A stretch of DNA of 64,000 nucleotides from an uncultured Pseudomonadales bacterium (GTDB lineage: Bacteria; Patescibacteriota; Microgenomatia; UBA1400; PJMF01), in the NCBI GenBank assembly GCA_964607285.1, contig CAZSJW010000001.1, positions 2,514 through 66,513 of the forward strand. The letters are read 5' to 3'. The position numbers and the translations under genes were made by a program. Each line of letters opens with the position of its first letter. Within the stretch, counting starts at the first letter, position 1. The notes under the pieces were generated by a model. That model had not been told where the DNA came from. It saw only the letters and a list, made by a program, of their open reading frames with translations, and ran no database searches. Shown here one piece after another: positions 7,706 through 38,774 of the stretch.

Positions 7706-8149
7706 ATGCAAAAAACATACATGCAAAAAACAGCTGATGTGACCCGAGGATGGCACTTAGTTGATGCCGAGGATAAAATCCTAGGTGTGGTGGCTACAGA
7801 GATTGCTGTCAAGCTGATGGGTAAAGACAAAAAAGAGTACACACCACATATTGAGAGTGGTGACTATGTAGTTGTGATCAATGCTGCCAAAGTAGCAGTA
7901 ACAGGCAAAAAACGTGATCATAAAATGTATTACCGTCACTCTAACTACCCTGGTGGTTTGCGAGAAAAGACATTTGCTCAGCTCATAGAAACAAAGCCCG
8001 AGGACATTATCACCTTGGCAGTAAAAAATATGTTACCAAAAAACCGACTTCGTGATCCTCGTTTAGCTCGACTCAAAGTCTATGCTGACGACTCACACAA
8101 GCATCAAAGTCAACTCGGTGGTACTACCGAAGCAAGTACAAGCAAGTAA
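7706..8149 (+). CDS. rplM: 50S ribosomal protein L13
   Basis: W.LVDAEDKILG..AT.IA..L.GK.K..YTPH block. The start could be the second ATG at 7721. Confidence 0.93.
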   Translation: MQKTYMQKTADVTRGWHLVDAEDKILGVVATEIAVKLMGKDKKEYTPHIESGDYVVVINAAKVAVTGKKRDHKMYYRHSNYPGGLREKTFAQLIETKPEDIITLAVKNMLPKNRLRDPRLARLKVYADDSHKHQSQLGGTTEASTSK

Positions 8150-8169
8150 GTTACGCGAAACGAGATAGT

Positions 8170-8685
8170 ATGGCACTCAAGCTTAGTAAGAAAAACACTA
8201 AAGTTCAAAAAGTTGTAAAAAAAGCTACACCAGTAGCGCAAAAATCAACTCGTAGTTCTGGCGCAGTTCGCTCGCAGGTCACGCTCCCAACTGGCCAATA
8301 TACTGAGGGTGTAGGTCGCCGAAAGGTAGCAACTGCTCGTGTTCGTATTTACGAGGGTATGGGTGATTTTGTAGTCAATGGCCGTGTGGTGGGTGAGTAC
8401 TTTGCAACTGTTCCTTCTGCTACTCTTCGATATCTCCAAGCATTTGAAGTAACTGGTACCAAAGGCAAGTTTGCAGTTAGTGCAAAAGTGTCAGGCTCAG
8501 GTCCCTCAGCTCAATTGGATGCAGTCGTACATGGCTTATCTCGTGCGTTAGTAAAGTTCAATGGTGAATACCGTGGTTTGCTTAAAACAGCAGGCCTTCT
8601 GACTCGTGATGACCGCATGAAAGAGACTCGAAAAATCGGTATGGGTGGTAAAGCTCGCCGAAAACGACAGTCACCAAAGCGATAA
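8170..8685 (+). CDS. rpsI: 30S ribosomal protein S9 with ~40-aa basic N-terminal extension
   Basis: GVGRRKVATARVRI core and C-terminal RKIGMGGKARRKRQSPKR. Classical rplM-rpsI pair. Confidence 0.93.
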   Translation: MALKLSKKNTKVQKVVKKATPVAQKSTRSSGAVRSQVTLPTGQYTEGVGRRKVATARVRIYEGMGDFVVNGRVVGEYFATVPSATLRYLQAFEVTGTKGKFAVSAKVSGSGPSAQLDAVVHGLSRALVKFNGEYRGLLKTAGLLTRDDRMKETRKIGMGGKARRKRQSPKR

Positions 8686-8726
8686 GCTGAATTTATTTTT
8701 ACTTCGATTTTTTTCTTTGGGTCTTG

Positions 8727-9101
8727 CTAACTATTTTTTGTGGGGCTATTTGCATTTTTATAATAATTTGCCAGAAGCGTGAGTGTTGTTATGGTCGCTG
8801 ATGAAAGTGATAAAACAATACTATCTACAGACATCTGCGCTTCCATCAGCCCAGCCGTATGTAGTAAAAAAGTGATGAGCACAATAGCTAATTCTGGAGC
8901 AGTTGCTAACAGTATATTCAGTATCTCTTTGAGTATAGGTAATGGGTCGGTTGTTTTTTCAGAGGCATCCAGCAATTCCTGAACTAGAACTCCTTTTAAT
9001 AAACCAACAAGCATTGCAACAGAAATGGGAAGTTCAGTTAGGGCGGAAGTAGTTTGTTCTGAGGATTGAGTAAGTACTTCTGCAAGTAATGTAGACTGCA
9101 T
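8727..9101 (-). CDS. Hypothetical protein (weakly supported)
   Basis: 124-aa ORF downstream of the ABC array. No obvious SD and no recognised motif. Confidence 0.35.
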   Translation of the reverse strand: MQSTLLAEVLTQSSEQTTSALTELPISVAMLVGLLKGVLVQELLDASEKTTDPLPILKEILNILLATAPELAIVLITFLLHTAGLMEAQMSVDSIVLSLSSATITTLTLLANYYKNANSPTKNS

Positions 9102-9135
9102 GTTTGTTCGTCAATGAGCTATTTTCCAGAGTATA

Positions 9136-9936
9136 TCATCCCCCTGCCCCACTGTATTGTCTCAGAGCAAGTTTCCAAATAATCAAACTAAGACCTAGAA
9201 GTCCAATTCCCGCTAGTACGGTGCCAGCTATTGTGTATACATGGATTGAACCAAGTAGCACAGTTGTTGGAATAGTCACCATAAGTCCCACAGGCATAAC
9301 AAAGTACAGTATAGACCTGAGTGGCTCTTGATACACTGTGACTGGAAACTGTCCAAGCCTGATCAAGTCTCTGTATAACCAAATAACACCATCCACATCA
9401 ACAATAATGATGCCTGCTGCCATAACAAGAATATGCATTCCCAGCGCGATTAGATAGCCATTTGCCAAAAGTAACAGATACCACAAGATGCCGGAGAGTG
9501 ACAGGACAATGTCTAGCTTACTTACGATCCAGAGCGAAACTCCAACAACTGGTAGTAAGAAAAGTGCATCGTTAATATCAGGATGACCCATGAGTGCTCG
9601 AAACAAAGGGCTGATGGGTTTGCTCAGGTAGCTATCAAACCGTCCATCTCGGATTAGCGGGGAAAACATGTAGACACCACGAAATAACACCGCTGTGCTC
9701 ACATCTAAAAATTGATACGTGAGGAAGAATACTACAACTTGATCTGGGCTGTATCCTGCCATGCCTGCTTCTGATTTCCTCAGTACAAATAAAAACACTA
9801 GCATCATACAGAAGCGAACCGTTTTGCCAAAGAAAAATAAAGCGTTCGTCCAAGGAGATATAAATGTTTGTTGGAGTGCGTTGGAAGCAGTTGTGAACCA
9901 AATAAGCCAGTAGGTTTTTAGTCTCCGTAAAGTCAT
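9136..9936 (-). CDS. ABC-2-type transporter permease, type-B paralog 3
   Basis: About 6 TM segments. Mid-protein motif RDGRFDSYLSKPISP is shared with 11801..12592 and 13393..14193. C-terminal tail RQYSGAGG. ATG at 9936, 1 nt after the upstream stop, aligns best with the paralog N-termini; the tracked start is 9957. Confidence 0.8.
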   Translation of the reverse strand: MTLRRLKTYWLIWFTTASNALQQTFISPWTNALFFFGKTVRFCMMLVFLFVLRKSEAGMAGYSPDQVVVFFLTYQFLDVSTAVLFRGVYMFSPLIRDGRFDSYLSKPISPLFRALMGHPDINDALFLLPVVGVSLWIVSKLDIVLSLSGILWYLLLLANGYLIALGMHILVMAAGIIIVDVDGVIWLYRDLIRLGQFPVTVYQEPLRSILYFVMPVGLMVTIPTTVLLGSIHVYTIAGTVLAGIGLLGLSLIIWKLALRQYSGAGG

Positions 9937-9937
9937 G

Positions 9938-10729
9938 TTATTGTCCTGCAGCCGCATACTGCTTCATACCACGTCGCCATACGGTACGGATGACTATGGT
10001 GCCTATACAGAGCCAAGCTACAAAAATCACTGTATGTTGGAGCAGTGTGCTTGTGTCTAATTTTCCTAAGAAAAGCTGAGTTTGCACGAATGACAGGTAG
10101 GGCAAAGGAGTGAGAAACAGAATTGTTTGAATAGCTTCAGGTAAAATATCTAGAGGAAATAACTTCCCTGCGGTAAAATCAAGCATAATAAAGAATAGGA
10201 ATCGTGGTGCCCACGTTTCTGGACTCCAAAAGCCAATTGAGCCGAGAAGGGAAAGGATAATACCGTTTAAGTACACCGCACCTAGTGTCCAGAAACCAAA
10301 CAAGAGCAGTGTACTGCCCGAAGGTAGATGCAACGATGGAGTGAACATTGACCATAATAGTACAGACTCAGCAACTAAAAATAAGAAATTTTTAAGTTTG
10401 TCTGCAACCTCTTGGATAAAAAAATACCCAAATATACTCATAGGGCGAATTAGAATAATACTTAACCCTCCAGAATAGATAAACTCTGACATACCATGCA
10501 AACTGCTACTGAGTACAACACTTTGCAGGAGAGAGATAAGAAAAATGTATGTTATGGCACTCTCTTGTGTGTATCCTGCCACAGTAGTATCATTTCCAAG
10601 CAACAATGACCACACCGTGAGTGCCATGAATGTAGCCATGAAATTGCGAAATCGCCATAAGAGAACACTGGTGCGATACACAAAACCATTTTGCCAAGTA
10701 GTTGAGAAAAGTTGCAGGTACTTTTTCAT
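9938..10729 (-). CDS. ABC-2-type transporter permease, type-A paralog 3
   Basis: Multi-TM. Motifs GYTQESAITY and SGGLSIILIRPMS are shared with 12595..13377 and 14197..15036. Tail KQYAAAGQ. Confidence 0.8.
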   Translation of the reverse strand: MKKYLQLFSTTWQNGFVYRTSVLLWRFRNFMATFMALTVWSLLLGNDTTVAGYTQESAITYIFLISLLQSVVLSSSLHGMSEFIYSGGLSIILIRPMSIFGYFFIQEVADKLKNFLFLVAESVLLWSMFTPSLHLPSGSTLLLFGFWTLGAVYLNGIILSLLGSIGFWSPETWAPRFLFFIMLDFTAGKLFPLDILPEAIQTILFLTPLPYLSFVQTQLFLGKLDTSTLLQHTVIFVAWLCIGTIVIRTVWRRGMKQYAAAGQ

Positions 10730-10736
10730 TGGCTAC

Positions 10737-11759
10737 TTAGTTTGATTTTGGTTTTTTCGTGCTTTGTTTTTCAAACACCTCACGAATGATTGCTTCAATT
10801 GGTGGTTCCTCAATGTTCACGTCTTGCACTGGTAATTTATTGAGAATTTGCGCAGCAACTTTGGTGGCAGTTGCTCGGGGAACTAGAATGGTTGCCGTAT
10901 ATGCAGATCCATCTTCACTATGTTCTTTGACTTCACCAAACTGTTTGAGAGCAGAGCGAGTTACGGGTTCTGAAAAAGTAAACGACAAAATCTTATTCCG
11001 TGCAAAAGTATCGATGATTTTTTGCAGCTCACCATCAAATATTTTCTGACCACGGTCAATAATGATAGCGCGTTTGCACAGTTCTTTGACGTCTCCCATG
11101 TAGTGGCTGGTCAGGATAATTGTTGATCCAAACTCTTTGTTATACTGTTTTATAAAGTCTCGTAAGGTTTTTTGCATTACCACATCAAGTCCAATGGTTG
11201 GTTCATCCAAAAATAATACTTGTGGGTTATGGAGTAGTGCAGCTATAAGTTCACATTTCATACGTTGGCCTAAAGACAGTTTCCTCACTTGCACATCTAG
11301 AATTTCTGAAACATCTAGAAGGTCAACTAACGTACTCAGTGTTTTTTTGAACTGAGCCTCTGGTATCTCATAAATTGCTTTGTTGAGCAAAAATGTCTCC
11401 ATGGCGGGCAAGTCCCACCATAGTTGATTTTTTTGACCCATCACTAGTGCAAATTGTTTTTGAAATTCTGGTTTGCGATCCCAGGGGTTGTAGCCGAGTA
11501 CATTGACTGAACCTTCAGTCGGATACAGCAAGCCCGAAAGCATTTTGAGTGTTGTAGTTTTTCCCGCACCATTTTGGCCAATGAAACCAACAACTTCACC
11601 AGGTTGAATAGTGAAACTAACATCATCTACCGCTTTGACTTCGTGATACTCTCTATGCCAGAGCGACTTGAATGAACCAAGCAAGCCTGCTTCTTTATGA
11701 TAAACCTTGAAATATTTTTTGAGGTTTTGGATGGAGATGATGGGCGGTGTGTCTGACAT
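10737..11759 (-). CDS. ABC transporter ATP-binding protein (the only NBD in the cluster)
   Basis: Walker A GQNGAGKTT, signature LSLGQRMK, Walker B VLFLDEPTIGLD, H-loop TSHYM. About 100-aa C-terminal extra domain. Confidence 0.92.
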   Translation of the reverse strand: MSDTPPIISIQNLKKYFKVYHKEAGLLGSFKSLWHREYHEVKAVDDVSFTIQPGEVVGFIGQNGAGKTTTLKMLSGLLYPTEGSVNVLGYNPWDRKPEFQKQFALVMGQKNQLWWDLPAMETFLLNKAIYEIPEAQFKKTLSTLVDLLDVSEILDVQVRKLSLGQRMKCELIAALLHNPQVLFLDEPTIGLDVVMQKTLRDFIKQYNKEFGSTIILTSHYMGDVKELCKRAIIIDRGQKIFDGELQKIIDTFARNKILSFTFSEPVTRSALKQFGEVKEHSEDGSAYTATILVPRATATKVAAQILNKLPVQDVNIEEPPIEAIIREVFEKQSTKKPKSN

Positions 11760-11800
11760 ATGAGCTTCCTTGGATATATTGTACAGGATGTGCTAGTGTA

Positions 11801-12592
11801 TTAGGAGCTTACAGATGTATACGCTCTCAGCGCATACTTCCAGGCATATCGATGTAAGACATAAAAAATACAAAGTAAGACACACTCATAGAATACTAGC
11901 TGCCATGGTCTGTGTCCTAGCAGGAACAAGGTGGGGACATAGCCTAAGAATGCTACTGGGACGATAGCAATCAGCACGAACTGGAGTGATCCAGGAAAAA
12001 TGGAAATGGGATACTGTCCTGAGTCACTTGTTTTATCAAACAGTTCTAAAATCTGCTCAGCTCGAGTCATAACAAAGCCGAGTGTGGCGTACGTTGTCAA
12101 TGCAAAGTAGTGTACGAGCAAGCCTAACGAGACGACACAAAGTGCCAGCAGACTATTGGTGAGGCTGAGTTGCTCATGGACTTGTGATGCTTGATGTAGA
12201 AACAGTGCAATACAGAGGCCAAGCAGAGGAAGTTGGGTAAGGTCAGGTTTGCCCCAGGCTATGAAAAAAATAGGAGAAATTGGTTTGGTAAGATACTGGT
12301 CAACAACACCATGTCTGATTCCATCCCACAAGAATGATCGTAGGGCAACTATGTAGAGAATAAAGGCTATTGTGTACATGATGAAACACACACTGAGCAG
12401 CAGGGTGGACTCAGTCCGATTCCAGCTACCAAGTTCAGGTGCACGTTGGTACGCAAGTTGTTGCACCATGAATAACACGCCCATGTAGGCGGGCCCGTGT
12501 AGGAAGTGCACAAATGTATTCAGACGAAACGCAAGCAACACTTGCAGTCTTGTGAGAAATAACAGGTAATAAATATTGAGGTATCTCATCAT
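11801..12592 (-). CDS. ABC-2-type transporter permease, type-B paralog 2
   Basis: Multi-TM. Motif HGVVDQYLTKPISP. Tail RAYTSVSS. Confidence 0.8.
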   Translation of the reverse strand: MMRYLNIYYLLFLTRLQVLLAFRLNTFVHFLHGPAYMGVLFMVQQLAYQRAPELGSWNRTESTLLLSVCFIMYTIAFILYIVALRSFLWDGIRHGVVDQYLTKPISPIFFIAWGKPDLTQLPLLGLCIALFLHQASQVHEQLSLTNSLLALCVVSLGLLVHYFALTTYATLGFVMTRAEQILELFDKTSDSGQYPISIFPGSLQFVLIAIVPVAFLGYVPTLFLLGHRPWQLVFYECVLLCIFYVLHRYAWKYALRAYTSVSS

Positions 12593-12594
12593 AT

Positions 12595-13377
12595 CTAGAT
12601 TCCAGTTCCCTCATATTCCTGTATGCCCATACGCCAAAGCCATTGATTTCCAATATGCAGTACCACACCCCAGAGTGCTAGGGTACACAGACCGATAAGA
12701 CTTTCCTGTACAGTCAGTGCTCCTTGCAGGAGCCGTATTGGTGTTGAGGCTAAATGGGGGAAGGGTGTGAGAATAAGTATAGATTGTGCCCATTCAGGGA
12801 AGTAGTCAAAGGGTAGTAATAGCCCAGATAAAAAACGAAACAACACCGTCAAACCCCAGCGGACTGCAAAAATTTCAGTAAACCAAAATGCGCACACACT
12901 GATACTGCTGAGCAGTAAAAATGATACATAAAAAATAAGTGGAATATAGAGACTAAATAGTGCAAGTTGCAGTGACTCGGCATGAAATGAAAAACCAAAC
13001 ATATAAGCAAGGGGAACAAATGAAACAGCCTTCAACAGTGTGGCCAGCCCTGACTCGGCACCGATTTTGACCACATAAAACCAGTGTGGTGAAATTGGTT
13101 TAACTAAAAAACGAGATAAACCACCCTGCTTGATGTCTACTTCAATTTCATACGGGTGAAAGTTGCTGAGTGTGTAGAGAATTGCTGCACCAACAAAGTA
13201 GGTGATTGTTTCTGCTCTTGTGTAGCTGGCTGCAGGATTTGACTGCTCTACCGCCAACCATACCAGTGCAGTGAAGACAATCATGAGACTGTACTTTATC
13301 GTACTTAGCAGAAAATTAACCCGATACTCTAATGTATCTTGGATGGCAATTTTGGTAATCAAACCGTACACAGACAT
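12595..13377 (-). CDS. ABC-2-type transporter permease, type-A paralog 2
   Basis: Multi-TM. Motifs SYTRAETITY and QGGLSRFLVKPISP. Tail QEYEGTGI. Confidence 0.8.
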   Translation of the reverse strand: MSVYGLITKIAIQDTLEYRVNFLLSTIKYSLMIVFTALVWLAVEQSNPAASYTRAETITYFVGAAILYTLSNFHPYEIEVDIKQGGLSRFLVKPISPHWFYVVKIGAESGLATLLKAVSFVPLAYMFGFSFHAESLQLALFSLYIPLIFYVSFLLLSSISVCAFWFTEIFAVRWGLTVLFRFLSGLLLPFDYFPEWAQSILILTPFPHLASTPIRLLQGALTVQESLIGLCTLALWGVVLHIGNQWLWRMGIQEYEGTGI

Positions 13378-13392
13378 ACCAGGTATTGTAAA

Positions 13393-14193
13393 CTAACTCC
13401 CAGCACCCGCGTAGCGCAAGACGGAGTAGTGAAAAAATGTTCGTGCAGCAACAGTACTTACAATAGCAAAGGCCATAAAGTAGAGTAGCCAGTTGAGTTC
13501 CCATCTCCCAAGCAAGACTTCTGCGGGTATAGAACTCAGTAATCCAAATGGGAGTATTACAGTGAAGAGAAGTGCGCCCATTCCTTGATAGATACCACGA
13601 GGAACTTGAAACACTCTGCGTAGTCCTGGAATAATGTCGTTTATATTGTTGAGTCGCTCTACATAAAATGCCATTGTGGAAATTGCAAACCAAGTGTTGT
13701 AAATAATCAGCAGGCTGCATCCTAGTAGTGCAGTGTATGCTGCAATCGTTAGAAGACTTATAGGTACTCCAACTTTTTGTACACTCCACCACAAAATGCC
13801 CGCACCAATAATGAGTCGTGAGATCTGGGAATAGTTATTATCATGAATAGCCAGTAATAGTTGTGGATCCACAGGACGCAGTAAGAAGAGGTCAAAACTG
13901 CCATCAAATATGGATTGCGTGTACACACGCATTATTCTGTTAAAGAACGACCAGGTGAAGGAGTCTAGAATTGTGAATGTTGCTAACAGCACATATAACT
14001 CTGCGGTGTTCCACCCTGCAATAGTACCGTTGACTCGTAGCAGCAAGGCAAAAAAGAAAAAGTTGAACAGTGTCCATAGTATTGAAATAAAGGACCAAAA
14101 ATAAAAATTTGCTCTGTACTCAAACAGCAGCATCAGCCTGAGAGCGCGGAACTTCCAGAACAAATACCAGTAATAACTTACTCGGTTTTGCAT
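13393..14193 (-). CDS. ABC-2-type transporter permease, type-B paralog 1
   Basis: Multi-TM. Motif FDGSFDLFLLRPVDP. Tail LRYAGAGS. Confidence 0.8.
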   Translation of the reverse strand: MQNRVSYYWYLFWKFRALRLMLLFEYRANFYFWSFISILWTLFNFFFFALLLRVNGTIAGWNTAELYVLLATFTILDSFTWSFFNRIMRVYTQSIFDGSFDLFLLRPVDPQLLLAIHDNNYSQISRLIIGAGILWWSVQKVGVPISLLTIAAYTALLGCSLLIIYNTWFAISTMAFYVERLNNINDIIPGLRRVFQVPRGIYQGMGALLFTVILPFGLLSSIPAEVLLGRWELNWLLYFMAFAIVSTVAARTFFHYSVLRYAGAGS

Positions 14194-14196
14194 GGG

Positions 14197-15036
14197 TTAT
14201 CCTCCAGATGAAGCGTACTTGCGTACCCCGCTGCGCCAAAGTGCATCCACAGCAACCCCGAGTACCACCATTGTTGCTGCCAACATGAAAAGATCGCTAG
14301 ATTCAAGCACATATCTTCCTTGCAAGACACCTATGGGCACTGCATATAAAAACTTAAACGGGAGGAGGTTCGTGATTGTTCGCAGCCAATCAGGGAGAAA
14401 CTCCAAAGGCATGAGGGTGCCGCTGAGTATGGTGATACCTAGGAGTTTGAAGTGTTCCAGGCCTTGCGCCCCTTCAAACCAAAACGTTAGAAACGTGATC
14501 AGAATGCCAATGGCAAGTTGCATGAGGTATGCCACAAAAACAAGTGCTAGGAAACGGGCGAGAGTAATTAGTGAGATGGGTGGCAATGTAGTTCCTACTA
14601 CTTCTGCTGACCAATATATGAAAATAGAAAAAACTGGCAGAAACATACTGGCGTATAAAAGCTTACCGACTGTCTCACCCAAAACAATATCAGTCAGGTA
14701 GTAGTATGGCTTGGTGAAAAATCGATCAATTTGTCCCAAGCGAATTTCATCAGACCGCCAACCTTCAAAATGCACCTCAGTGAGGTTTGAGAGCAAGGCA
14801 CTGACTAGATAGTACGTGGTGATATCCGCTAACGTGTATCCATTAATGCTATTTTGGTCAGCATACAATTCCTGCCAGATGAGAAACAGGATAGCAAATG
14901 GCAAAAAACTCATGACAATCCAAATGGCCATTTCAGTGCGAAAAACCAAGACACGAGATATTTTGAAACGGACAATATGCAGATATCGCCAGATAGAGGC
15001 TAGAAAGCTGTGCTGAAGCGTACCAATGGCATGCAT
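14197..15036 (-). CDS. ABC-2-type transporter permease, type-A paralog 1
   Basis: Multi-TM. Motifs GYTLADITTY and LGQIDRFFTKPYY. Tail RKYASSGG. First gene of the seven-gene co-directional array. Confidence 0.8.
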   Translation of the reverse strand: MHAIGTLQHSFLASIWRYLHIVRFKISRVLVFRTEMAIWIVMSFLPFAILFLIWQELYADQNSINGYTLADITTYYLVSALLSNLTEVHFEGWRSDEIRLGQIDRFFTKPYYYLTDIVLGETVGKLLYASMFLPVFSIFIYWSAEVVGTTLPPISLITLARFLALVFVAYLMQLAIGILITFLTFWFEGAQGLEHFKLLGITILSGTLMPLEFLPDWLRTITNLLPFKFLYAVPIGVLQGRYVLESSDLFMLAATMVVLGVAVDALWRSGVRKYASSGG

Positions 15037-15040
15037 GGAG

Positions 15041-15316
15041 TTACCATACAGCTTTGCGAAGAGGTTTACCAGCTTTGAAGTTGACTACACGATGAGCTTT
15101 GATAACTTGGCGTTTCTTTTCATCACCAAATGGGACAACTTCTTTGTCATCGACTTCACCAACATACAGAGTGCCAAAGCCTGAGAGCACTACTTTCTCT
15201 CCTTTTTTGAGGGTTCTAGTCATTTCTTCGATTAAGGCATCTATTGCCTCTTCTGCAGCTCGCTTAGTGAGATGAGCTTTTTTTGCGACGATAGCGACCA
15301 ATTGTGATCTTGTCAT
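15041..15316 (-). CDS. hup: HU/IHF-family DNA-binding protein
   Basis: 91 aa. MTRSQLVAIVAKKAHLTKRAAEEAIDALIEEM..L..GEKV.L.GFG and a C-terminal beta-arm ...V.FKAGK.L. Contains a small insertion in the arm region. Confidence 0.85.
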   Translation of the reverse strand: MTRSQLVAIVAKKAHLTKRAAEEAIDALIEEMTRTLKKGEKVVLSGFGTLYVGEVDDKEVVPFGDEKKRQVIKAHRVVNFKAGKPLRKAVW

Positions 15317-15416
15317 AGGTGTCCTTTCAGATGCAGTACTAGTTTGAACTATTTGTTAGGTAGAGTACACAGTCTAATATATTAGCCTGCTAAGTCAAGT
15401 AGAAGATGTAGTGCTA

Positions 15417-15800
15417 CTAGAGATACTTGTATCGCCACAATAAAGCGAGGCTGGCACCGAGTGTGTCGTAGCATATGTCACGGGCTGTGGCTGTCCTGCC
15501 AGGTACAAGTGATTGATGGTACTCATCTGAGACAGCGTATACCATGGTCAGTAAAAATGGAATGAGCCATGCAGCGTGTGTTGTAGCATTTGGGTTTGTG
15601 AGGCGATGTGCTCTATGCAGCAAAAGGTATAAGACAGCATACACACCTACATGAGCCATTTTCTTAAAGAAAAACTCATAATTGGATGCTTGAAATGACG
15701 GTAAGGCTTGCTGGGAGGAGAGGAAAAAAATCAATCCTGCCCAACAAACAGGAGGTGCGTAGGCGATAGCCCATTGAAATGTTTGTTGTGCTAGTTTCAT
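15417..15800 (-). CDS. VanZ-like membrane protein
   Basis: 127 aa, 4 TM segments. Motifs K..H...Y and SDEYHQSLVPGRTATARDICYDTLGA are typical of the VanZ family. Confidence 0.7.
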   Translation of the reverse strand: MKLAQQTFQWAIAYAPPVCWAGLIFFLSSQQALPSFQASNYEFFFKKMAHVGVYAVLYLLLHRAHRLTNPNATTHAAWLIPFLLTMVYAVSDEYHQSLVPGRTATARDICYDTLGASLALLWRYKYL

Positions 15801-16969
15801 GTCGGGTACTTTGGAGGCTGTGTATATAGTACAGTTGCACCACCCATCAGCAAAAATCCACTACCCAGTATAGCACCCAGAACTGCACCTTGTGGGATAT
15901 TCCTTTGTCTATATTCTAGAGTTCGCATAGGTTCTGTATGTGCAGAGGTGGTACTTTCTGTGTACTGTTTGAAAAGTATGGGTAGTGCAAGTGGAGGCTT
16001 TTTTTTCTTTGCAGGGGAAAGTAAGGTTCCAGGTGTTGCGGTTGGTGAAGCTTCTATCGTATGAGTGGAAAGTGAGGGGCTGGGGGAGGGAACTGTTGGG
16101 CTTGCAGCTAGAATTGTAGTTTCTGTCTGCCATTCACCTTCGATCAGTAGCAATGGTTCTCCAATGGTGCATGACGTGTACTTCGCTGAGGCAAGCACGA
16201 CGCCTGAACTAGACAGCACGAATACAGTGTCTCCAGTATTATTGAGCATATCTGCAGTCCACTTGATTGAGCTTTCGGCAAGTGGTGGAAGTGACCCTGT
16301 AGTTTGTCTTTGGTTTTGTTGTTCATCTGTGATACGTATTGTGCTGAGATCAAGTATGGTTGTTCCTGTGTTGGTGATGGTGACGTACTCATCTGTATCT
16401 GTTGCAGGGCAAGGGAAAAGCTCGGATATAGAGATTTTTGCTGGTGACGCCGTAGGTGACGGTGTGGGTAGTAGTATAGGACTTGCACTGGGACTTGATG
16501 TCGGTTGCGGTGTTGGTTCACTCAGCATACTTAGGTATGTGCCAGGACTTGGTTCGCTGATTTGCCAAGTGTTTACTGTTCTGGCCCAACTTTTGGCTTG
16601 TTCACTTGCTGAGTAGCTAAATGAATCTGTGATGTCTATTGCAGGTGTGCGCAAGGTGACCCCATCTGCTGCGTTATTCAATTTTGGGTTTTCAAAGGTG
16701 AATACTTTTGTTTCTCCAGGGTTGAGTGTTATATGCAAGGTGAGTAGCAAACTGGGCGAGCTCAGTTCATCCCAGAGTTCCCAATTGGTTAGGTCTATTG
16801 CTTCTGCATCGGGGTTATGGAGCTCGATCCATTCAGGCTCACCACTTGCTGGGTTTGGATGTAGTTCAGTAATGAGGACAGAGGAAAAAACGGGTTTCGC
16901 TCCTGCTACCAAAGCCCAAGTGTAGAACAGGCAAGTCAACATGAAAAACCGAGATACAAACATCTTCAT
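15797..16969 (-). CDS. Surface protein with two lamin-tail-domain (LTD) repeats, Pro/Ser/Thr linkers and a C-terminal TM anchor
   Basis: Signal peptide. LTD1 begins VLITELHPNPASGEPEWIELHNP, LTD2 begins ISISELFPCPATDTDEYVTITNTG. PTPQPTSSPSASP linkers. C-terminal hydrophobic segment GAVLGAILGSGFLLMGGATVLY. Confidence 0.75.
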   Translation of the reverse strand: MKMFVSRFFMLTCLFYTWALVAGAKPVFSSVLITELHPNPASGEPEWIELHNPDAEAIDLTNWELWDELSSPSLLLTLHITLNPGETKVFTFENPKLNNAADGVTLRTPAIDITDSFSYSASEQAKSWARTVNTWQISEPSPGTYLSMLSEPTPQPTSSPSASPILLPTPSPTASPAKISISELFPCPATDTDEYVTITNTGTTILDLSTIRITDEQQNQRQTTGSLPPLAESSIKWTADMLNNTGDTVFVLSSSGVVLASAKYTSCTIGEPLLLIEGEWQTETTILAASPTVPSPSPSLSTHTIEASPTATPGTLLSPAKKKKPPLALPILFKQYTESTTSAHTEPMRTLEYRQRNIPQGAVLGAILGSGFLLMGGATVLYTQPPKYPT

Positions 16970-17021
16970 GTTGTATCACTTGAAACCTACATAACCCGTA
17001 GCTTTTTATGAGCAGAGTGAA

Positions 17022-20000
17022 CTAGGTTGCAGGTGAATTACTCTTAGGTGTTTTTTGTCTTTGTAGTAGCCCTGTGGCAACTAAAAAACTGCAGACTAAC
17101 AGTATCCAGATACCAATAAAGAGTAGTATTTGTGCATCGTGAATAACTATAATTGTAGTTACCCCCTCAGGTATGAACCATCCCTGTGCCCAATTATTGA
17201 CTGTAACTTCTGCTTTGATCTGCTGATGCTTGAGTACGCTTTGGAGAGCACTCCATACAGAAGTACCATCCCAGACATAGGCTCGCCAGCCAGGGTTCCT
17301 TGACTCATTGAGTGACATCACTCCATTTTCACCGTTCAGTTCAACCCAGTATGTACCAGTTCCCCAGCGTTTTATGGTGTTTACTGCCAGATTAGTGCTA
17401 TATAGCTGAGTATTTTTTGGGATAAGGGCAACTTGTGATAACCATTCAAACGAGGCAGGCATGGGTTGTATGGAGATCGCGTTCAACTCGTTTTGTGCTA
17501 GTTCTGTTCCGTACGATCTATTTTCAAAGTGCAGACTGTATTGAGAGATAGCCTGGTTTTTCCAATCAGGCACAGTTACCCACATATCAAACTCTTTGGA
17601 AGTCATAACGTGCTCAAAATCAACGCGGTTAGTGGCTAAGTTCTCCAAGTAGGCACGAATGTTTCGACCTGCATGATTTTTACCTGTAATGCGCAGCAGT
17701 GCAGGCGTTTGATTATTTGCGTGTGGAATGATGAAGCTATCACAGCCCGTTGCGCCACCACTGTTTTCATACAGCACAGAGTTGGCAGTCATAGTTTTAT
17801 TGCGAGAACCCCTATCAAACTCTGTACATGATGCAAACTTTGTTATGTGCAGTGAATCTAGTAAGTTACTGCTAGCAATGGTTGTAAGCACTAAAGTGGG
17901 TTGGTCTTGATCAAGGCGAACACTGGTGGTGGGGAGTTGTAGTTCATTCCAGATTGCAGAAGGTATAGTGGCAGTGTGTAAGTCACTGGACTCAATCAGG
18001 ATATGGGTAGCAGAGGGAGTTGCGATAGCTGTATCGAAGTAGTTGATGGTGATTTCCTCACCGTAGCGCAGCCCAGTTAGCGACACCGCTTGCTCTGAGT
18101 TTGCTTTAAGTTCTATCACTTGCCCGTTTAATTCAATAGTAAGTGCCTCAGGTGAAACAGCAAGTGGAACAGCTACGGATGGGAGTGTCGGGAACTCGAT
18201 ACTGGTATCTCCAGCTAAGACGCGCAGTGGTGTACTGAATGCTATCTTGAGCTCGGCATCTGAGTAAGCCAGTTTTGCAGTTTGGCTAAGATATTGGCCT
18301 TGAGTCAGCGGTGGGAAAGTGAGTTCGTACTGGCCTGAAAGCGTTTCGTGTGCCACAAACGAAGGCCCATTGGATGTGTTTGTGATAGGAATACTCTCTT
18401 GCTGCAAGTTAGCAAAAGGGTAGATGGTGTGTGGGATAGTCTCATCTGCCGTAATGGTATCAGTAGTGAGGAGAGTGCTGGGATCAAATCTAGAGTACAG
18501 AGAGTTTGCAGTGGTGTACGTAGCAGATTGCACCGCACTGACGGGTGCCACGGCAACAGATTTGTTTTGGTACAGGGAAATGCTTCCCAGCGTTCCCACT
18601 TTTTCAACACCAGGTAGCATAGCCAACATGGCTTGCAGTTCTGCCACAAAGAACACCTCTTTATTCGTGTTTGGCAAATATACTGAATCGTCCAGTAGTA
18701 CATGTGCAATGTTGTATTTCTGTAGCAATCTATCTAACTGATCTACATCCTGGTTGTACACCGCTCGCTGCATTTCCAATCGGTAGGTTTCATTAAAGGG
18801 ACTCCAGACGTCAAACGAACGCCCGAGAATAGGCTGATGCATGCCGTACCAGAGAAACCCAGAGCCTGTGTACCCTCTGTGTTCCATCCAACTGTGCATA
18901 TCCCAGCCTGTATAGGTGTAGATGGGAAACACAGCAACTCTCCCATATCTGGGCCGCTTGGCAAAGTACTCCATGACCTCTGTATACTCCTCAGGCAACT
19001 TGACTCGTGCTCCTTGATACAGGAAGTGGCCCTGCATACTTGGCCAGGATAACCAAAGTACGCAGAGTACGCACACTATGCCCGTTGTGTTGCGAGCTCG
19101 CGCTATTGTCTGTTGGGTAAGTCGCCTGGAGAAAAGTTCAAACAGCCCCGATATGCCTACCGCTGCCCAGAGTGATAGAAAAAGACTAGCAGACATAGAA
19201 AGCTTAGAGTAGGGAATTCTAAAGGCTTGATTAAGAATGGGTACAAAGCGAATGGCATCTGAAACATAGGTGAGAGGCCAAGTATCTGTGAGAAGTAGCA
19301 CGAAGGTACAAACAGCCGCGATTGCCAGCCCTGTGGCGGTGGCACTTCTCTTGCTGAGTCGAACTGCTCCCCACCCAACTCCCCATAGGCTGAGCAGGGC
19401 TATACTGTACCCAATCATGCGCACTACGGGTGACTCGAGGTGCTGCTTCCATGGAGTTAAAATTAATTCAAGAGGGCTGCCACTGTCAAATCTAGCTTGG
19501 TCATATGAGTCAAATAAGAACCCTTCAAGCAGAGACACCTCGGCTAAGTTGCCAGTAGCTCTTGTGGTGTAAATAAACTCTGTGGTGGTAATTTGATTAA
19601 GCTTTGCAAACAAGTAGTGATCACCTTGGGTGGCGGTGAAATAGGCAACGGGAGCCAGCCAGTAGGCGTTAGTGGCAAGTACTATCAATACCGCTAAAAG
19701 GCTGGTACGTACGGTCTCCCATCGTTTGGGGTGTATGAAGAACGCTGTACTGGCAGCACAACCTAAAAATAGCCCGTACGTGATAAAGAGTGGCGGAATA
19801 AAGCCAATAATGGAAAGGTAAAGATTGAGTAGGAAGAACACCACGAGTTTCCTGGTGGTTCGGTTTTCCAGTAATCCTACGAAACTCCAGAGTACCCATG
19901 GGAGCACTCCGTACATGACCGCAAAGGGCTCGAGTGCCACGTAAAATGTTTGAACAGTGCCTGGATGAAGTAAGTACAGCAGCGCGCCGATTGTCGCGGC

Positions 20001-20408
20001 CCAGGATTTAGTGTTCTGTTTGAGATTCAGCTGTTCTAGTGTTTGCGCAGTGAGGACGTATGCTCCAAGCACTCCGACTAGCAGCATGAGGTACATAAAT
20101 GCGTAGCGCAGGTACTGCAAAGGTATAAATAAACCAAGCACAGCTTGTGTTACAGCATGAAATAGTTGCGCAGAGTACCCATGCCCGCCAAGTAGTCCCA
20201 GTCCTTGGAAGCTTTGCCAGGCACCAGTTATTGAACGCTCAATGTTGAGTGCAGGGTTAAACTCACTGGCCATAGTATCCCAGCTGAGAAACCAGGTACC
20301 AAGTTCAGTATTAGTTAGGACAATTGCCAACCAGGCAACAAACACTACAACCACGCCCAAGTGTTTACTGAGCAAAGACTGGAATGAGCTTTTTAAGCCG
20401 TGCCACAT
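17022..20408 (-). CDS. 1128-aa polytopic membrane protein with a large extracytoplasmic region and C-terminal TM; GT-C-like glycosyltransferase candidate
   Basis: About 12 or more hydrophobic segments in the first ~480 aa, a long soluble region, and a final TM LLFIGIWILLVCSFLVATGLL. The architecture resembles large GT-C / DUF3367-type enzymes. Family assignment is not verified. Confidence 0.6.
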   Translation of the reverse strand: MWHGLKSSFQSLLSKHLGVVVVFVAWLAIVLTNTELGTWFLSWDTMASEFNPALNIERSITGAWQSFQGLGLLGGHGYSAQLFHAVTQAVLGLFIPLQYLRYAFMYLMLLVGVLGAYVLTAQTLEQLNLKQNTKSWAATIGALLYLLHPGTVQTFYVALEPFAVMYGVLPWVLWSFVGLLENRTTRKLVVFFLLNLYLSIIGFIPPLFITYGLFLGCAASTAFFIHPKRWETVRTSLLAVLIVLATNAYWLAPVAYFTATQGDHYLFAKLNQITTTEFIYTTRATGNLAEVSLLEGFLFDSYDQARFDSGSPLELILTPWKQHLESPVVRMIGYSIALLSLWGVGWGAVRLSKRSATATGLAIAAVCTFVLLLTDTWPLTYVSDAIRFVPILNQAFRIPYSKLSMSASLFLSLWAAVGISGLFELFSRRLTQQTIARARNTTGIVCVLCVLWLSWPSMQGHFLYQGARVKLPEEYTEVMEYFAKRPRYGRVAVFPIYTYTGWDMHSWMEHRGYTGSGFLWYGMHQPILGRSFDVWSPFNETYRLEMQRAVYNQDVDQLDRLLQKYNIAHVLLDDSVYLPNTNKEVFFVAELQAMLAMLPGVEKVGTLGSISLYQNKSVAVAPVSAVQSATYTTANSLYSRFDPSTLLTTDTITADETIPHTIYPFANLQQESIPITNTSNGPSFVAHETLSGQYELTFPPLTQGQYLSQTAKLAYSDAELKIAFSTPLRVLAGDTSIEFPTLPSVAVPLAVSPEALTIELNGQVIELKANSEQAVSLTGLRYGEEITINYFDTAIATPSATHILIESSDLHTATIPSAIWNELQLPTTSVRLDQDQPTLVLTTIASSNLLDSLHITKFASCTEFDRGSRNKTMTANSVLYENSGGATGCDSFIIPHANNQTPALLRITGKNHAGRNIRAYLENLATNRVDFEHVMTSKEFDMWVTVPDWKNQAISQYSLHFENRSYGTELAQNELNAISIQPMPASFEWLSQVALIPKNTQLYSTNLAVNTIKRWGTGTYWVELNGENGVMSLNESRNPGWRAYVWDGTSVWSALQSVLKHQQIKAEVTVNNWAQGWFIPEGVTTIIVIHDAQILLFIGIWILLVCSFLVATGLLQRQKTPKSNSPAT

Positions 20409-21720
20409 ACTGCCATTCTAGAGTGTTTCTGAGCGGGTTGGAAGTGTAGATGGTAGTGAGCTCTTCTTGCAGGCGCACTTCTGGTGATCGTTGCACAGCG
20501 AGGTCTTTAGCAAGGGCAGCAATTTTTCTGCGTACAGAAACTTTACCCAGTAGTCTGAGGTGCTCTACGAACGAGCGTTTGTTTCGCTTAAAGACCAACT
20601 TGTCTGTAGAGATTGCGTGTTTGGCTAGCAGCTCTTGGATATCACCACTCTGTAAATATGCACCTAAGTCTTTGGAAAGTATGAAGGGTACGCCGTAGGC
20701 AATACCTTCACCCCAGGATGCAGATGCACCAAGGATGCCACGGTATGGTAGTACTGCCATATCTGCAACAGCAAAGTAACGGCTGAGCTCTGCATCAGGA
20801 ATGAAGCCAGTCAGACGAATGTTTTTAGAGTGCACTGCAGCCTGACTGAGTGAGCGGTAGAACTGCTCATAGTGGGTTTTTCCCGTTTGGGATGGGGCTT
20901 TTCCCCCTGCCAAAATAAGATGCAGTTCTGCATCCCCCAACTGATCTGCAGCAATATCTCGAACTGCATTCACCAGCCAATCAACACCTTTGTATCGAGT
21001 CATGAAGCCGAAACAGACTAAGACTAAATCATTTGGTTTGAAACCCATTCTGGCTCTCCAGTAGCGGCGGCCCTTTAGATTTTTTGGGTACACCCAGAGA
21101 GGTGATACAACTAATTTTTGTTGTGCTACATATGGGGAGAGACGTTGGCGCATGCTGTCATCTAGACAAATAATTTGATCAAGACACATACCGAGTACTC
21201 GGTAGTACCAAGGCAAAAGTTTGGTTAGTGCCTGCATAGTTTTGCCAGTCTGCGAACGACCCAAGTGGCGAGCTAGAAAGCCAAAATTTGTGATCACATT
21301 ATGTGCAAAGTAACTGAGGAAGTATCCTGCACTTCTCAGAGCAAGATAAAAAGGAAGGGCAGCGGCCATCTGCAGCATGTTTCCACTGGTGTAAAACTCA
21401 GAGTGGATATGTAAATGTTTTGCTTTATTGAATAGTCTCAATGCTTGGGAGATCTGAAGGTACATTTTAGGAGACGCTGAAAAAACTGGCAGCACTAAGA
21501 CTCTGCCTCGCTCCAGAAGCTGTGGTTTGCGGTCATATTCCTGCTGAACTAAAACCACAAATCGCTGTTTTGTGCTGCGAGCGACAGTGCCAACAGTTTG
21601 CTGGGTGTACTTTGCTACACCATGATATGAGTGGGCAATGTTCTGGTAGGGGTACTTGGAAAGCACCAAGATCGTATCTGGCGAGTTGAATCGCGAAATG
21701 ATCTGTTTTGATAGTTTCAT
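20365..21720 (-). CDS. GT-B fold glycosyltransferase (family 1/4-like)
   Basis: C-terminal nucleotide-sugar-binding style block GFIPDAELSRYFAVADMAVLPYRGILGASASWGEGIAYGVPFILS. 44-nt overlap with the downstream membrane-protein gene. Confidence 0.7.
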   Translation of the reverse strand: MKLSKQIISRFNSPDTILVLSKYPYQNIAHSYHGVAKYTQQTVGTVARSTKQRFVVLVQQEYDRKPQLLERGRVLVLPVFSASPKMYLQISQALRLFNKAKHLHIHSEFYTSGNMLQMAAALPFYLALRSAGYFLSYFAHNVITNFGFLARHLGRSQTGKTMQALTKLLPWYYRVLGMCLDQIICLDDSMRQRLSPYVAQQKLVVSPLWVYPKNLKGRRYWRARMGFKPNDLVLVCFGFMTRYKGVDWLVNAVRDIAADQLGDAELHLILAGGKAPSQTGKTHYEQFYRSLSQAAVHSKNIRLTGFIPDAELSRYFAVADMAVLPYRGILGASASWGEGIAYGVPFILSKDLGAYLQSGDIQELLAKHAISTDKLVFKRNKRSFVEHLRLLGKVSVRRKIAALAKDLAVQRSPEVRLQEELTTIYTSNPLRNTLEWQYVARLKKLIPVFAQ

Positions 21721-34920: not shown

Positions 34921-36153
34921 TTAGTAATTGACGTGCAAGTAGAAGGTGCTGATGTCTGAGTCTTTGTGCTTTACCTTGACGTATCTGAGTTGGCCTCCTC
35001 CACAAGAAATGCTACCGCGGAATAGCTCACCGTCCTTGACTGCCTTCACCGTGTAGTCTTGAGATTTGCTGGCCATGTCAATGCCCGTATGTGGAGCACC
35101 ACCATAAGCTCGGCGAACACGAGCATAGTACGTCATCCCGTACCCCTGGTTTATTTTTGCAGGATCACTGAGCGGCCACTCCCAGTCTCCGCCGAAACCG
35201 AACGCACCATCTGGGTCATTGTTCCAAGCCGCTGAAATTGGTTTTAGGTATCCTGCAGGGTTATAGTTTACGCCGCCGCGAACAACTTCAAAATGCAAAT
35301 GGGTGCCATTTGAACAAGTTGATGCTCCTACAATAATAGAAGCAATTTTATCTCCTTGGGAGACATTTCCTACTTTAGACTCACTTCCTTTTCCAGCAAT
35401 GATAGATTGGATAGCGTTTAACTCAGCTAAGGTTTTCTCAAGCTCTGCCTGGTACTTTGCTTCGTTGTTGCGGGTTTCGGTAAGAAGAAACTGCTGCTCT
35501 TGTTTTTGTTTCCCTAAGGCTCCGCGCTCCACTTCGAGTTTAGTTTGTTTAGTTTGTACTTCAGTTTGTTTCTTTTCTTTTAAGGCTTTTTGATCGTCAT
35601 ACTCTATGCGTTGGCTTTCAGCTTTACCCATGGCAAGTGCTGTTTGTTGACCCGCTTCTGTGACATACTTATACTGTGAGACTAGATGATTAAATGAACC
35701 TGAGGATGCTAATAAGACTAATGGGGTGGTTTGGGCAGTTTTGTACTGACTGCGAATGCGATCAATCAGCACAGTGCTTAGGCGGTCCAGCGAAACGTTG
35801 AGACCACTGATGCGAGTAGTGAGTTCACGAATTTCTCTCTCCAGTTGCTCAATTTCAGTTTCCAGCTGGTTGATTTCCAGTTGCTGGATAGTGATTTTAC
35901 CGTTGATGATACTAATGGTATTAGTGAGGGTAACCTTTTGTGTTCCTATTTCTTGCAGTTTTGATTGCAAGCAGCTTTTTTTATCATCAATACACCGTAA
36001 GTATTCATCTTCGACCTGCAGGTTTTTATCACAAGCTATGGTGCCACAATCGTCTGCAGCGTACAGGGGGGTAGTACGAATTTGGAAAATAATACCAGCG
36101 CAAACGCCAATAGCGACTATGGCTGTAAAAAATTTGAGAAAAGTAGTGTGCAT
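34921..36153 (-). CDS. Coiled-coil M23 (LytM-type) metallopeptidase with permuted motif order; EnvC/PcsB-like partner of FtsEX
   Basis: N-terminal TM/signal, ~200-aa heptad-rich region, then GTHLHFEV (HxH) about 70 aa before PHTGID (HxxxD), ending in FYLHVNY. ATG at 36153 preferred over the TTG at 36201. Confidence 0.85.
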   Translation of the reverse strand: MHTTFLKFFTAIVAIGVCAGIIFQIRTTPLYAADDCGTIACDKNLQVEDEYLRCIDDKKSCLQSKLQEIGTQKVTLTNTISIINGKITIQQLEINQLETEIEQLEREIRELTTRISGLNVSLDRLSTVLIDRIRSQYKTAQTTPLVLLASSGSFNHLVSQYKYVTEAGQQTALAMGKAESQRIEYDDQKALKEKKQTEVQTKQTKLEVERGALGKQKQEQQFLLTETRNNEAKYQAELEKTLAELNAIQSIIAGKGSESKVGNVSQGDKIASIIVGASTCSNGTHLHFEVVRGGVNYNPAGYLKPISAAWNNDPDGAFGFGGDWEWPLSDPAKINQGYGMTYYARVRRAYGGAPHTGIDMASKSQDYTVKAVKDGELFRGSISCGGGQLRYVKVKHKDSDISTFYLHVNY

Positions 36154-36216
36154 GCGACAAGCATTACAGTACCAGAAATATGCTGTTTTGTCAGTCCACA
36201 ACTTGAGGAAGTGTCG

Positions 36217-37083
36217 CTATCTGAGATATCTGCGTACTGCTACTAAGCCTGCAATGCCACCTAGTATCATGCCCGCCCCATTGCCAATGCCGATTTGTGT
36301 AGCCAGAAACAAGGGAGGAACAGGGAGTACTGTAATTTCACCCAAAAATTCTTGTATCCATGGTGAGGCATAGAGAAGCATGGTGTACATGAGAGTCCAC
36401 CCCACAAGAGAACCTAGTATGCCGTATAGCATCCCTTCCCACACGAATGGGCTTTGGACATATCCTTTGGTTGCACCAATAATTCTCATGATGGTGATGG
36501 CCCTTCGTTGATTGGCTGCTTTGATTGCAATCAATACCATGACTGTGAGAAAAGAAATAACAGCTAGCACGCCAACAATGGCGAGTCCAATCGCCCGTAT
36601 AGATGAGGTCCAGCGATTGAGTGCGTCCACTATGTCTTGTTGGTACACAACATCTTCAACACCAGGTGTTTTTTCTAGGTCAGCTTTTATTTGAGGCAGA
36701 TCGGCGATTTTCACGGCTGAAACTTCGATGCTGGCGGGCAAAATGTCTGCAGTTACCAGCTCAAGGAGCAGAGGATCGTCTTTATTTTCTGCTTTGTACA
36801 ACTCAAGTGCTTCTTCTTGAGTTACCACTGTTGTGTCCTTCACGTAAGGCTTTTCTTGCATGGATGTGGCAAGTGTTGTGATATCAGTATCAGGTGTTTT
36901 TAGTTCAAAAAAAGCAATGATTTGTGGTCTAGCTTCAAAATACTGCAAGACTACATGTCCCCCCGTTACTACCAGCGAAAAAATATAGGCCACAAAAAAA
37001 GTCAGTGAAACCATCATGATTGAAACTAATGCCTGGTACGGCGTACGACGCATTGTGGTCAGTGCAGTAGACAGTGATTTCAT
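36217..37083 (-). CDS. ftsX: Cell division permease-like protein FtsX
   Basis: 288 aa. TM1, large extracellular loop, three C-terminal TMs with RIIGATKGYVQSPFVWEG. ATGA overlap with ftsE. Confidence 0.9.
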   Translation of the reverse strand: MKSLSTALTTMRRTPYQALVSIMMVSLTFFVAYIFSLVVTGGHVVLQYFEARPQIIAFFELKTPDTDITTLATSMQEKPYVKDTTVVTQEEALELYKAENKDDPLLLELVTADILPASIEVSAVKIADLPQIKADLEKTPGVEDVVYQQDIVDALNRWTSSIRAIGLAIVGVLAVISFLTVMVLIAIKAANQRRAITIMRIIGATKGYVQSPFVWEGMLYGILGSLVGWTLMYTMLLYASPWIQEFLGEITVLPVPPLFLATQIGIGNGAGMILGGIAGLVAVRRYLR

Positions 37084-38066: not shown

Positions 38067-38108
38067 ACGAGCAGGTGTTGATTTCGTTTATCGCTGAGGA
38101 TAAACAGT

Positions 38109-38702: not shown

Positions 38703-38774
38703 AGCTAGTCTCCGATACTCAGCATCCAGTATAGCATGATGCTGTGTGAACTGTGAGGTCGCAAAATTACACAA

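Follow-up and report, generated by a model that had tools for sequence, protein, structure and literature searches.

The stretch of DNA analysed here (the window, 64,000 nucleotides) contains an array of seven minus-strand open reading frames between positions 9136 and 15036, in the order A1-B1-A2-B2-NBD-A3-B3, where A and B are two classes of permease and NBD is an ABC ATPase. The array begins with A1 (14197–15036, 279 residues) and its cognate partner B1 (13393–14193, 266 residues), followed by A2 (12595–13377, 260 residues) with its partner B2 (11801–12592, 263 residues). After these two accessory pairs comes the ATPase (10737–11759, 340 residues), and the core pair A3 (9938–10729, 263 residues) and B3 (9136–9936, 266 residues) closes the array. 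The longest reading frame for B3 begins at 9957; the start at 9936, which the earlier reading used, yields a product of 266 residues that matches a database protein (P0121) exactly and leaves no overlap with A3. The measured gaps along the array are 3, 15, 2, 41, 7, and 1 nt, of which 3, 2, and 1 nt fall within the pairs A1-B1, A2-B2, and A3-B3, respectively. An earlier note on this DNA had described seven co-directional genes with gaps of 42 nt or less, and this holds. With no gap above 41 nt, the seven genes are probably co-transcribed. A gene for an HU-like DNA-binding protein (15041–15316, minus strand; PF00216, 74 bits) lies 4 nt upstream of A1 in the same direction.

All six permeases match PF06182 (ABC2_membrane_6), which we take to be DUF990, with scores of 46–150 bits against a gathering cut-off of 22 (A1, 70; B1, 150; A2, 46; B2, 109; A3, 55; B3, 112 bits). 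A2 also matches PF01061 with 37 bits. All-versus-all BLASTP and HMMs both resolve the A class from the B class. The E values range from 1e-14 to 1e-21 between A proteins and from 1e-9 to 1e-15 between B proteins, and are 3e-6 or weaker between the classes; the best matches of A1 are A2 and A3. The division into one ATPase and six permeases of alternating classes, first read from the letters alone, is thereby confirmed. The class motifs quoted at that time are present, although A1 departs from GGLS and reads G-Q-I-D there, and the quoted C-terminal tails match letter for letter. Likewise, the pairs are as strongly diverged as had been claimed, with paralog types that are only 20–30% identical to one another. 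When rooting was attempted, the distances between types were as large as those to the outgroup homologs from Clostridium and Bradyrhizobium, which is compatible with duplication inside the lineage as well as with acquisition.

The comparison covered 80 related Patescibacteria loci, which together encode 144 A and 143 B proteins. The columns conserved across all permease types lie mainly in the loop between TM2 and TM3, the C-terminal tail, and the N terminus. The loop carries a motif common to all types, G-x2-(D/S)-x2-L-x-(K/R)-P, in which the Gly and the Pro are 100% conserved in 287 permease sequences. A Tyr at position -6 from the C terminus is found in 131 of the 144 A proteins and 137 of the 143 B proteins, which puts the tail beyond chance. 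The same tail is present on the permeases of the non-CPR members examined (Clostridium and Bradyrhizobium). These cytoplasmic elements may be conserved as plain family features, found in systems with one pair as well, and not through sharing of the NBD.

The ATPase (PF00005, 98 bits; drrA-like) has intact motifs: Walker A GQNGAGKT, signature LSLGQ, Walker B VLFLDEP, and H-loop TSH. Across the 80 loci, conservation of the Q-loop stretch is 95% or more. Identity of the NBD among the Patescibacteria relatives is 58–93%, and its upper value contrasts with the 65–75% of the cognate permeases. Against the NBDs that accompany PF06182 pairs in C. perfringens and Bradyrhizobium, it shows 39 and 50% identity, respectively. 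Like those proteins, it carries an N-terminal insertion ahead of strand β2 and ends in a domain of about 90 residues, and it also has their C-terminal motif D-I-N-I-x-E-P-P. Both the insertion and this motif are missing from FtsE. The reading frame at 37080–38066, which contains Walker A and LSGG motifs, was considered as a second NBD and proved to be FtsE, accompanied by FtsX and an M23 peptidase. A match at 2472 was rejected as an ABC protein; it lies inside a 178-residue reading frame of the ribosomal cluster. FtsE is therefore the only other ABC NBD in the window, as expected from the earlier claim of a single NBD, and no second EvrA-like NBD was found within the 64 kb.

By its PF06182 profile and by gene make-up, the array is assigned to the family named Ethyl Viologen Exporter EVE (DUF990), TCDB 3.A.1.141 (PMC5417439), which corresponds to COG4586, COG4587, and COG3694. 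EvrABC from Synechocystis sp. PCC 6803 is the tested member and exports viologens (Prosecka 2009, as cited in PMC5417439 and PMC10469934), so that the class is not wholly uncharacterised, in contrast to its description in the earlier note. The viologen phenotype concerns a xenobiotic and may not reflect physiology. KEGG-based annotation already labels Microgenomatia homologs as evrABC (PMC10469934). Judged by family profile and gene make-up, the array is like EvrABC in having PF06182 permeases and one ATPase with two different permease subunits, A-like and B-like. With the EvrABC-type family it also shares the N-terminal insertion and C-terminal domain of the NBD and the Tyr tail of the permeases, the last seen in the non-CPR members examined.

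The three-gene operons reported for this family encode one ATPase and one permease pair (PMC6003355). Outside CPR, in C. perfringens and on Bradyrhizobium plasmids, we likewise found one NBD with one A-then-B pair, and the view that this ratio is normal thus holds outside CPR. The array differs from such canonical systems in having three pairs per ATPase, with one to four in its relatives. It differs also in its location, a core-genome site next to HU and ribosomal-protein genes rather than a resistance or biosynthetic cluster. The PF06182 systems outside CPR are embedded in NRPS or acyl-adenylate clusters, a setting that fits export of amphiphilic products.

The predicted folds of the permeases are those of type V exporters, nearest to KpsM, Wzm, and TarG. 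They have six TM helices, with an interface helix at the N terminus and re-entrant helices in the TM5–TM6 linker, and can be superimposed on the solved members. At the sequence level no match to PDB chains was found at E ≤ 10, and identity to KpsM, Wzm, and TarG is only 8–14%. In KpsMT, Wzm-Wzt, and TarGH the TMDs are homodimeric and encoded by one gene in a glycopolymer biosynthesis locus. The array, in contrast, has two TMD genes per module, which would form obligate A/B heterodimers, and no dedicated polymer-synthesis operon; its NBD lacks the carbohydrate-binding domain of the Wzt type.

Across the 80 loci, the same type of NBD is found with one, two, three, or four A/B pairs. The order is invariably A then B, with a single NBD of the EvrA-like type. 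Gene order was counted in the 60 loci with complete flanks, the window among them, and was ABNAB in 24 (N being the NBD), NAB in 15, ABABNAB in 10 with two more slightly disrupted, ABABN in three, and ABN in three. Four pairs are present at locus L045. About two thirds of the complete loci have at least two pairs, and about one fifth have three. Multi-pair arrays are thus common across the lineage, and the window is a typical member rather than a singular oddity. The earlier note had asked how often such arrays occur in relatives and whether they were already characterised; a literature search returned no paper that describes multi-pair arrays of the EVE/DUF990 family. Most loci sit between an HU gene and a ribosomal-protein cluster. 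In 63 of the 80 the HU gene is directly 5' of the first permease or the NBD, regardless of the number of pairs, and it is the conserved left border of the array.

The pair directly downstream of the NBD is of the A3/B3 type in nearly all loci and is a near-universal core. Where there are two pairs, the upstream one is of the A1B1 type in 21–23 loci and of the A2B2 type in seven. Orthologs of A1 (n = 34) occupy position -2 in three-pair loci and -1 in two-pair loci, and those of A2 (n = 19) occupy -1 without exception. The B1 cluster (n = 39) forms 33 adjacent pairs with the A1 cluster, and the B2 cluster (n = 19) forms 18 with the A2 cluster. The A1/B1 and A2/B2 types are separate orthologous groups, each present or absent independently. 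All seven genes are under purifying selection. Values of dN are 0.05 in the NBD and 0.17–0.28 in the permeases (0.28 for A1 against locus L002); the comparison is limited to dN, as dS has reached saturation with even the closest relative.

The conservation of each type bears on whether the pairs are simply redundant isoforms for the same class of substrate, kept as condition-specific variants or for dosage, so that robustness rather than substrate diversity would be the benefit. All pairs do keep the family-wide motifs, and there is little to indicate separate regulation: no Rfam match at E ≤ 1 was obtained in 8000–21000, where a ppGpp riboswitch like that of the Firmicutes operons is also absent, and promoters and terminators inside the array are not enriched over shuffled sequences. 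We nevertheless regard redundancy as unlikely, since the types are as distant mutually as from the Clostridium and Bradyrhizobium homologs, and each is an orthologous group maintained by purifying selection across many genomes. Pair types that are divergent yet conserved form a pattern typical of sub- or neo-functionalised paralogs.

Membership of the A and B clusters pairs almost 1:1 (65, 33, 18, and 7 pairs), and the A and B of one pair are always gained or lost as a unit. This indicates that they are cognate co-evolving partners and makes it quite improbable that any A combines with any B, which would allow up to nine TMD combinations per NBD dimer. Such mixing would agree with the docking-type motifs common to all A and B proteins and with the probable co-transcription, but the gaps of 1–3 nt confine translational coupling to the interior of the pairs. 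The independent presence and absence of pairs, together with the A/B co-variation, favours interchangeable modules over a larger assembly, the two options that the earlier note had put forward. A single obligate super-complex of six TMD subunits and several NBDs would suit one tightly spaced operon, yet we consider it extremely unlikely: relatives function with one, two, three, or four pairs and with either accessory type alone, and in all solved structures of the type V fold a TMD dimer sits on a dimer of NBDs.

It is very doubtful that the accessory pairs work without this NBD, either with another ATPase encoded elsewhere or in a role that needs no ATPase. The view of this genome is a 64-kb window, and the evr genes of Synechocystis are reportedly unlinked, which would leave room for a distant partner. 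However, within 10 kb on either side of the array no second EvrA-like NBD occurs at any of the 80 loci, where other ABC matches score at most 112 bits compared with 427–698 bits for the main NBD. The accessory pairs also invariably belong to the operon of the NBD, where they immediately precede it, and they retain the invariant motif of the coupling loop.

We therefore favour, as the probable arrangement, a modular EVE/DUF990 exporter set in which one EvrA-like NBD homodimer energises three alternative heterodimeric type V modules. The physical A/B heterodimers and the sharing of the NBD are suggested by the genomic data, the latter by the single NBD gene per array in 80 loci. The three modules would be A1B1, A2B2, and A3B3. 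A3B3 would be the ancestral core module, given that NBD-A-B is the canonical operon of the family, and A1B1 and A2B2 would be accessory modules of ancient origin whose insertion separated the HU gene from the NBD. All six membrane subunits could dock to the same groove of the NBD through elements conserved in all of them, namely the loop motif, the interface helix at the N terminus, and the Y-x-x-x-G/S-x tail with its fixed length. Outside these elements the permease sequences are deeply diverged, which suggests that the substrates differ by module; most plausibly these would be amphiphiles or molecules with a lipid anchor, carried from the cytoplasmic leaflet outward. Export is indicated but not proven by the fold, as type V includes a few inward-directed transporters (ABCA4).

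An ATPase shared among membrane modules is also known from group II ECF modules and MsiK. In M. tuberculosis, MceG is the one ATPase for four heterodimeric YrbEA/YrbEB permease pairs (PMC9947336), and MsmK (PMC4519317) and FhuC (PMC10147376) are further precedents. Judged by gene content, the array would resemble all of these in having one ATPase that serves several membrane modules. The precedents are importers with other TMD folds and extra substrate-capture components, whereas the array has a type V exporter fold and no binding protein; no SBP, Mce, or S-component gene is present in the operon. Their modules are encoded at loci apart from the ATPase, whereas here all surround the ATPase gene in one operon. 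To our knowledge, the literature records neither ATPase sharing among type V (ABC-2) exporters nor sharing in the form of an in-operon array.

In CPR organisms, with genomes of about 1 Mb, hardly any of the envelope or exchange machinery has been characterised. That the arrangement is conserved throughout a CPR class at a core-genome site, together with an unusually conserved ATPase, suggests a transport platform that is economical and probably important. The multi-module architecture of this platform is hidden by the automatic label "viologen exporter evrABC." The array also provides natural material for asking how six TMD subunits that differ from one another could be recognised by a single NBD; the fixed Tyr tail and the invariant G...L-x-K/R-P loop are candidate recognition elements. 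More speculatively, Microgenomatia and some neighbouring CPR lineages may have turned the EVE/DUF990 family into a core-genome plug-in exporter platform, with one highly conserved ATPase, a universal core, and a variable set of four or more accessory heterodimeric modules of ancient origin. Such a platform would be the first type V system in which an NBD is shared in modular fashion. Its modules might each handle different lipids or glycoconjugates of the envelope, or amphiphiles directed at a host, and be central to an episymbiotic lifestyle; we offer this wider proposal only tentatively.

The only glycan-related gene near the array is a GT4-like reading frame 5 kb upstream, and a large membrane protein is encoded a few kb upstream. 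Shine-Dalgarno-like motifs are found before the NBD, B1, and HU genes, a signal too weak to bear on stoichiometry. A weak promoter-like site (15398–15371) precedes the HU gene, with which the transcription unit possibly begins.

Seven co-directional genes on the minus strand form the array, all of them found in the ORF listing where the earlier note had placed them. The first permease pair, A1 (14197-15036, 279 aa) and B1 (13393-14193, 266 aa), is followed by A2 (12595-13377, 260 aa) and B2 (11801-12592, 263 aa), then by the gene for the ABC ATPase, NBD (10737-11759, 340 aa), and finally by A3 (9938-10729, 263 aa) and B3 (9136-9936, 266 aa). The intergenic gaps along this order are 3, 15, 2, 41, 7, and 1 nt, a range of 1-41 nt that agrees with the upper limit of 42 nt claimed before. 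B3 has an alternative, longer ATG at 9957, and the identical protein-database entry is the 266-aa form.

All six permeases match PF06182 (ABC2_membrane_6) in a Pfam profile search, where the B proteins (109-150 bits) score systematically above the A proteins (46-70 bits). Searches against NCBIfam give sub-threshold DrrB/DrrC-like matches only. An all-vs-all BLASTP comparison splits A from B, which bears out the two alternating families: A-A comparisons give E values of 1e-14 to 1e-21 (25-30% identity), B-B comparisons 1e-9 to 1e-15 (20-27% identity), and A-B comparisons 3e-6 or weaker. The internal motifs and C-terminal tails previously described are also found in the permeases. The array is real and the earlier reading of it essentially right, but the class had been called uncharacterised, and the family has both a name, EVE/DUF990 (TCDB 3.A.1.141), and one characterised member, Synechocystis EvrABC, which combines a single ATPase with two distinct permeases (Prosecka et al. 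2009, as cited in PMC5417439 and PMC10469934). In Firmicutes, the same triad of natA-like ATPase, COG3694, and COG4587 forms a three-gene operon under ppGpp riboswitches, its function unknown (PMC6003355). Within Patescibacteria, evrABC homologs have been reported from class Microgenomatia bins only (PMC10469934).

A scan of species-representative genomes yielded 287 relatives, from which the best 80 loci, each with a flank of ±10 kb, were taken; they derive from MAGs of the Microgenomates group and other Patescibacteria. Many of these patescibacterial contigs are labelled "uncultured Pseudomonadales/Gammaproteobacteria," "Vitreimonas sp.," or "Bathyarchaeia archaeon" in their record titles, and the taxonomy labels of those public MAG records are unreliable.

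The NBD is a DrrA/ABCA-like ABC ATPase that retains intact versions of Walker A, the signature motif (LSLGQ), Walker B, and the H-loop. Every locus keeps the Q-loop stretch VMGQKNQLWWDLPA, conserved at 95% or more, and the protein as a whole is exceptionally conserved, at 75-89% identity across hundreds of Patescibacteria proteins. Apart from it, the 64-kb window encodes a single ABC NBD, FtsE, which adjoins FtsX and an M23 peptidase; with a prfB-like release factor these make up an ordinary division cluster (34921-39953, minus strand). No second NBD of the same type was found in any of the 80 loci with their flanks, where other ABC matches reach at most 112 bits versus 427-698 bits for the main NBD.

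A and B HMMs were built and run over all ORFs of the loci, and architectures were counted in the 60 loci with complete flanks, the window included. With N denoting the NBD, A-B-N-A-B occurs in 24 loci, N-A-B in 15, A-B-A-B-N-A-B in 10 (plus 2 slightly disrupted), and A-B-A-B-N and A-B-N in 3 each. Four A/B pairs accompany one NBD in Amesbacteria GW2011_GWC1_47_15 (locus L045, 5121-12278). Within pairs A always precedes B, on a single strand. In this lineage, arrays with several pairs are the norm and not the exception. The earlier note had allowed that such arrays might be common and already characterised; common they are, but a literature search found no mention of multi-pair arrays, and the arrangement appears undescribed so far.

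By best hits, almost every locus has a pair of A3/B3 type directly downstream of its NBD (31-76% identity), which makes A3/B3 the core module. In three-pair loci the A1/B1 type occupies the second pair position upstream of the NBD and the A2/B2 type the first, and in two-pair loci the upstream pair is A1B1 (21-23 loci) or A2B2 (7 loci). That pairs are present or absent independently of one another counts against an obligate single assembly of all six TMDs, and supports the interchangeable membrane modules that had been weighed against a larger assembly. Average-linkage clustering gives three large A/B clusters and a fourth, in which the A- and B-cluster membership of adjacent genes corresponds almost 1:1 (65, 33, 18, and 7 pairs). 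Such strict co-variation speaks against free mixing of A and B subunits. In the modular system that we propose, one NBD homodimer would serve alternative cognate A/B heterodimers, with A3B3 as the universal core and A1B1, A2B2, and others in relatives as putative ancient accessory modules. The deep divergence and conservation of each pair type point to distinct substrates. The four pairs of L045 are one sign of turnover among the accessory pairs, and their occasional loss is suggested by A genes split into two ORFs (L001, 6513-7513; L058, 6778-7514), an orphan A (L055, 2566-3366), and an A gene 7 kb away from its B (L028, 1166-1960). Compared with the closest relatives, each permease has a dN of 0.17-0.28 and the NBD one of 0.05, with dS saturated, indicating purifying selection on all seven genes.

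AF2 models of B3 and A3 are confident (pLDDT 94.5 and 86.5, respectively), and the predicted permease fold is that of a type V exporter; no PDB chain matching a permease at the sequence level was found. No more than 12 columns reach 70% conservation across the 287 A and B sequences. Conservation peaks in the TM2-TM3 loop G-x2-D/S-x2-L-x-K/R-P, where G and P are 100% conserved, in the C-terminal tail, with Tyr at position -6 in 94% of sequences, and in the extreme N terminus. By the established topology of the fold, all three would face the cytoplasm and the NBD.

With tblastn against plasmids, 68 records were recovered, each carrying in essence a single B-type gene. Two annotated plasmid contexts outside CPR, ordered A-B-NBD in C. 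perfringens and NBD-A-B in Bradyrhizobium, each have one NBD and one pair, in contrast to the three pairs in the window, and show the ratio that had been taken as normal. Their NBDs are 39-50% identical to that of the window and have the N-terminal insertion and C-terminal domain in common with it. Both systems place the A-type permease before the B-type, and the Tyr(-6) tail is present in 4/4, so the A/B split and the Tyr tail are ancestral family traits. The three pair types lie as far from one another as from their Clostridium and Bradyrhizobium counterparts. Genes for a BtrH-like protein, an adenylate-forming enzyme, and an ACP lie beside the C. perfringens transporter (locus L081, 4151-9513), and the Bradyrhizobium transporter lies within an NRPS cluster with MbtH and PPTase (L082, 1158-10750). 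Such embedding in small-molecule biosynthetic clusters suggests that acylated or peptidic products are exported. From the fold, these biosynthetic contexts, and the EvrABC phenotype, the most likely activity would be export of amphiphilic or lipid-anchored molecules.

An HU-like gene (15041-15316, minus strand) ends 4 nt before A1, and an HU gene is immediately upstream and co-directional in 63 of the 80 loci regardless of pair count. The array may therefore be co-transcribed with HU, a highly expressed nucleoid protein. An rpsM...rpsI/rpoA cluster converges downstream of the array in ~43 loci, and genes for VanZ and an LTD-domain protein are syntenic upstream in 26-29. With neighbours this constant, the array belongs to a conserved core neighbourhood, in which pairs were added between HU and the NBD. 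Searches at the array gave no Rfam element, and neither promoter nor terminator sites were in excess. A 124-aa ORF between B3 and rpsI (8727-9101, minus strand) matches no family, lacks homologs in all 80 loci, and is probably a non-gene or an orphan. In the window, the LTD protein (15797-16969, minus strand) has two Lamin-Tail domains, Pro/Ser/Thr-rich linkers, and a C-terminal hydrophobic anchor, and is followed by the VanZ-family gene (15417-15800, minus strand). A 1128-aa polytopic membrane protein (17022-20408, minus strand), possibly an uncharacterised enzyme of envelope glycosylation, lacks a Pfam or NCBIfam match and has homologs near the array in 14 of 80 loci; its gene is overlapped by 44 nt by the end of a GT4-like glycosyltransferase gene (20365-21720, minus strand).
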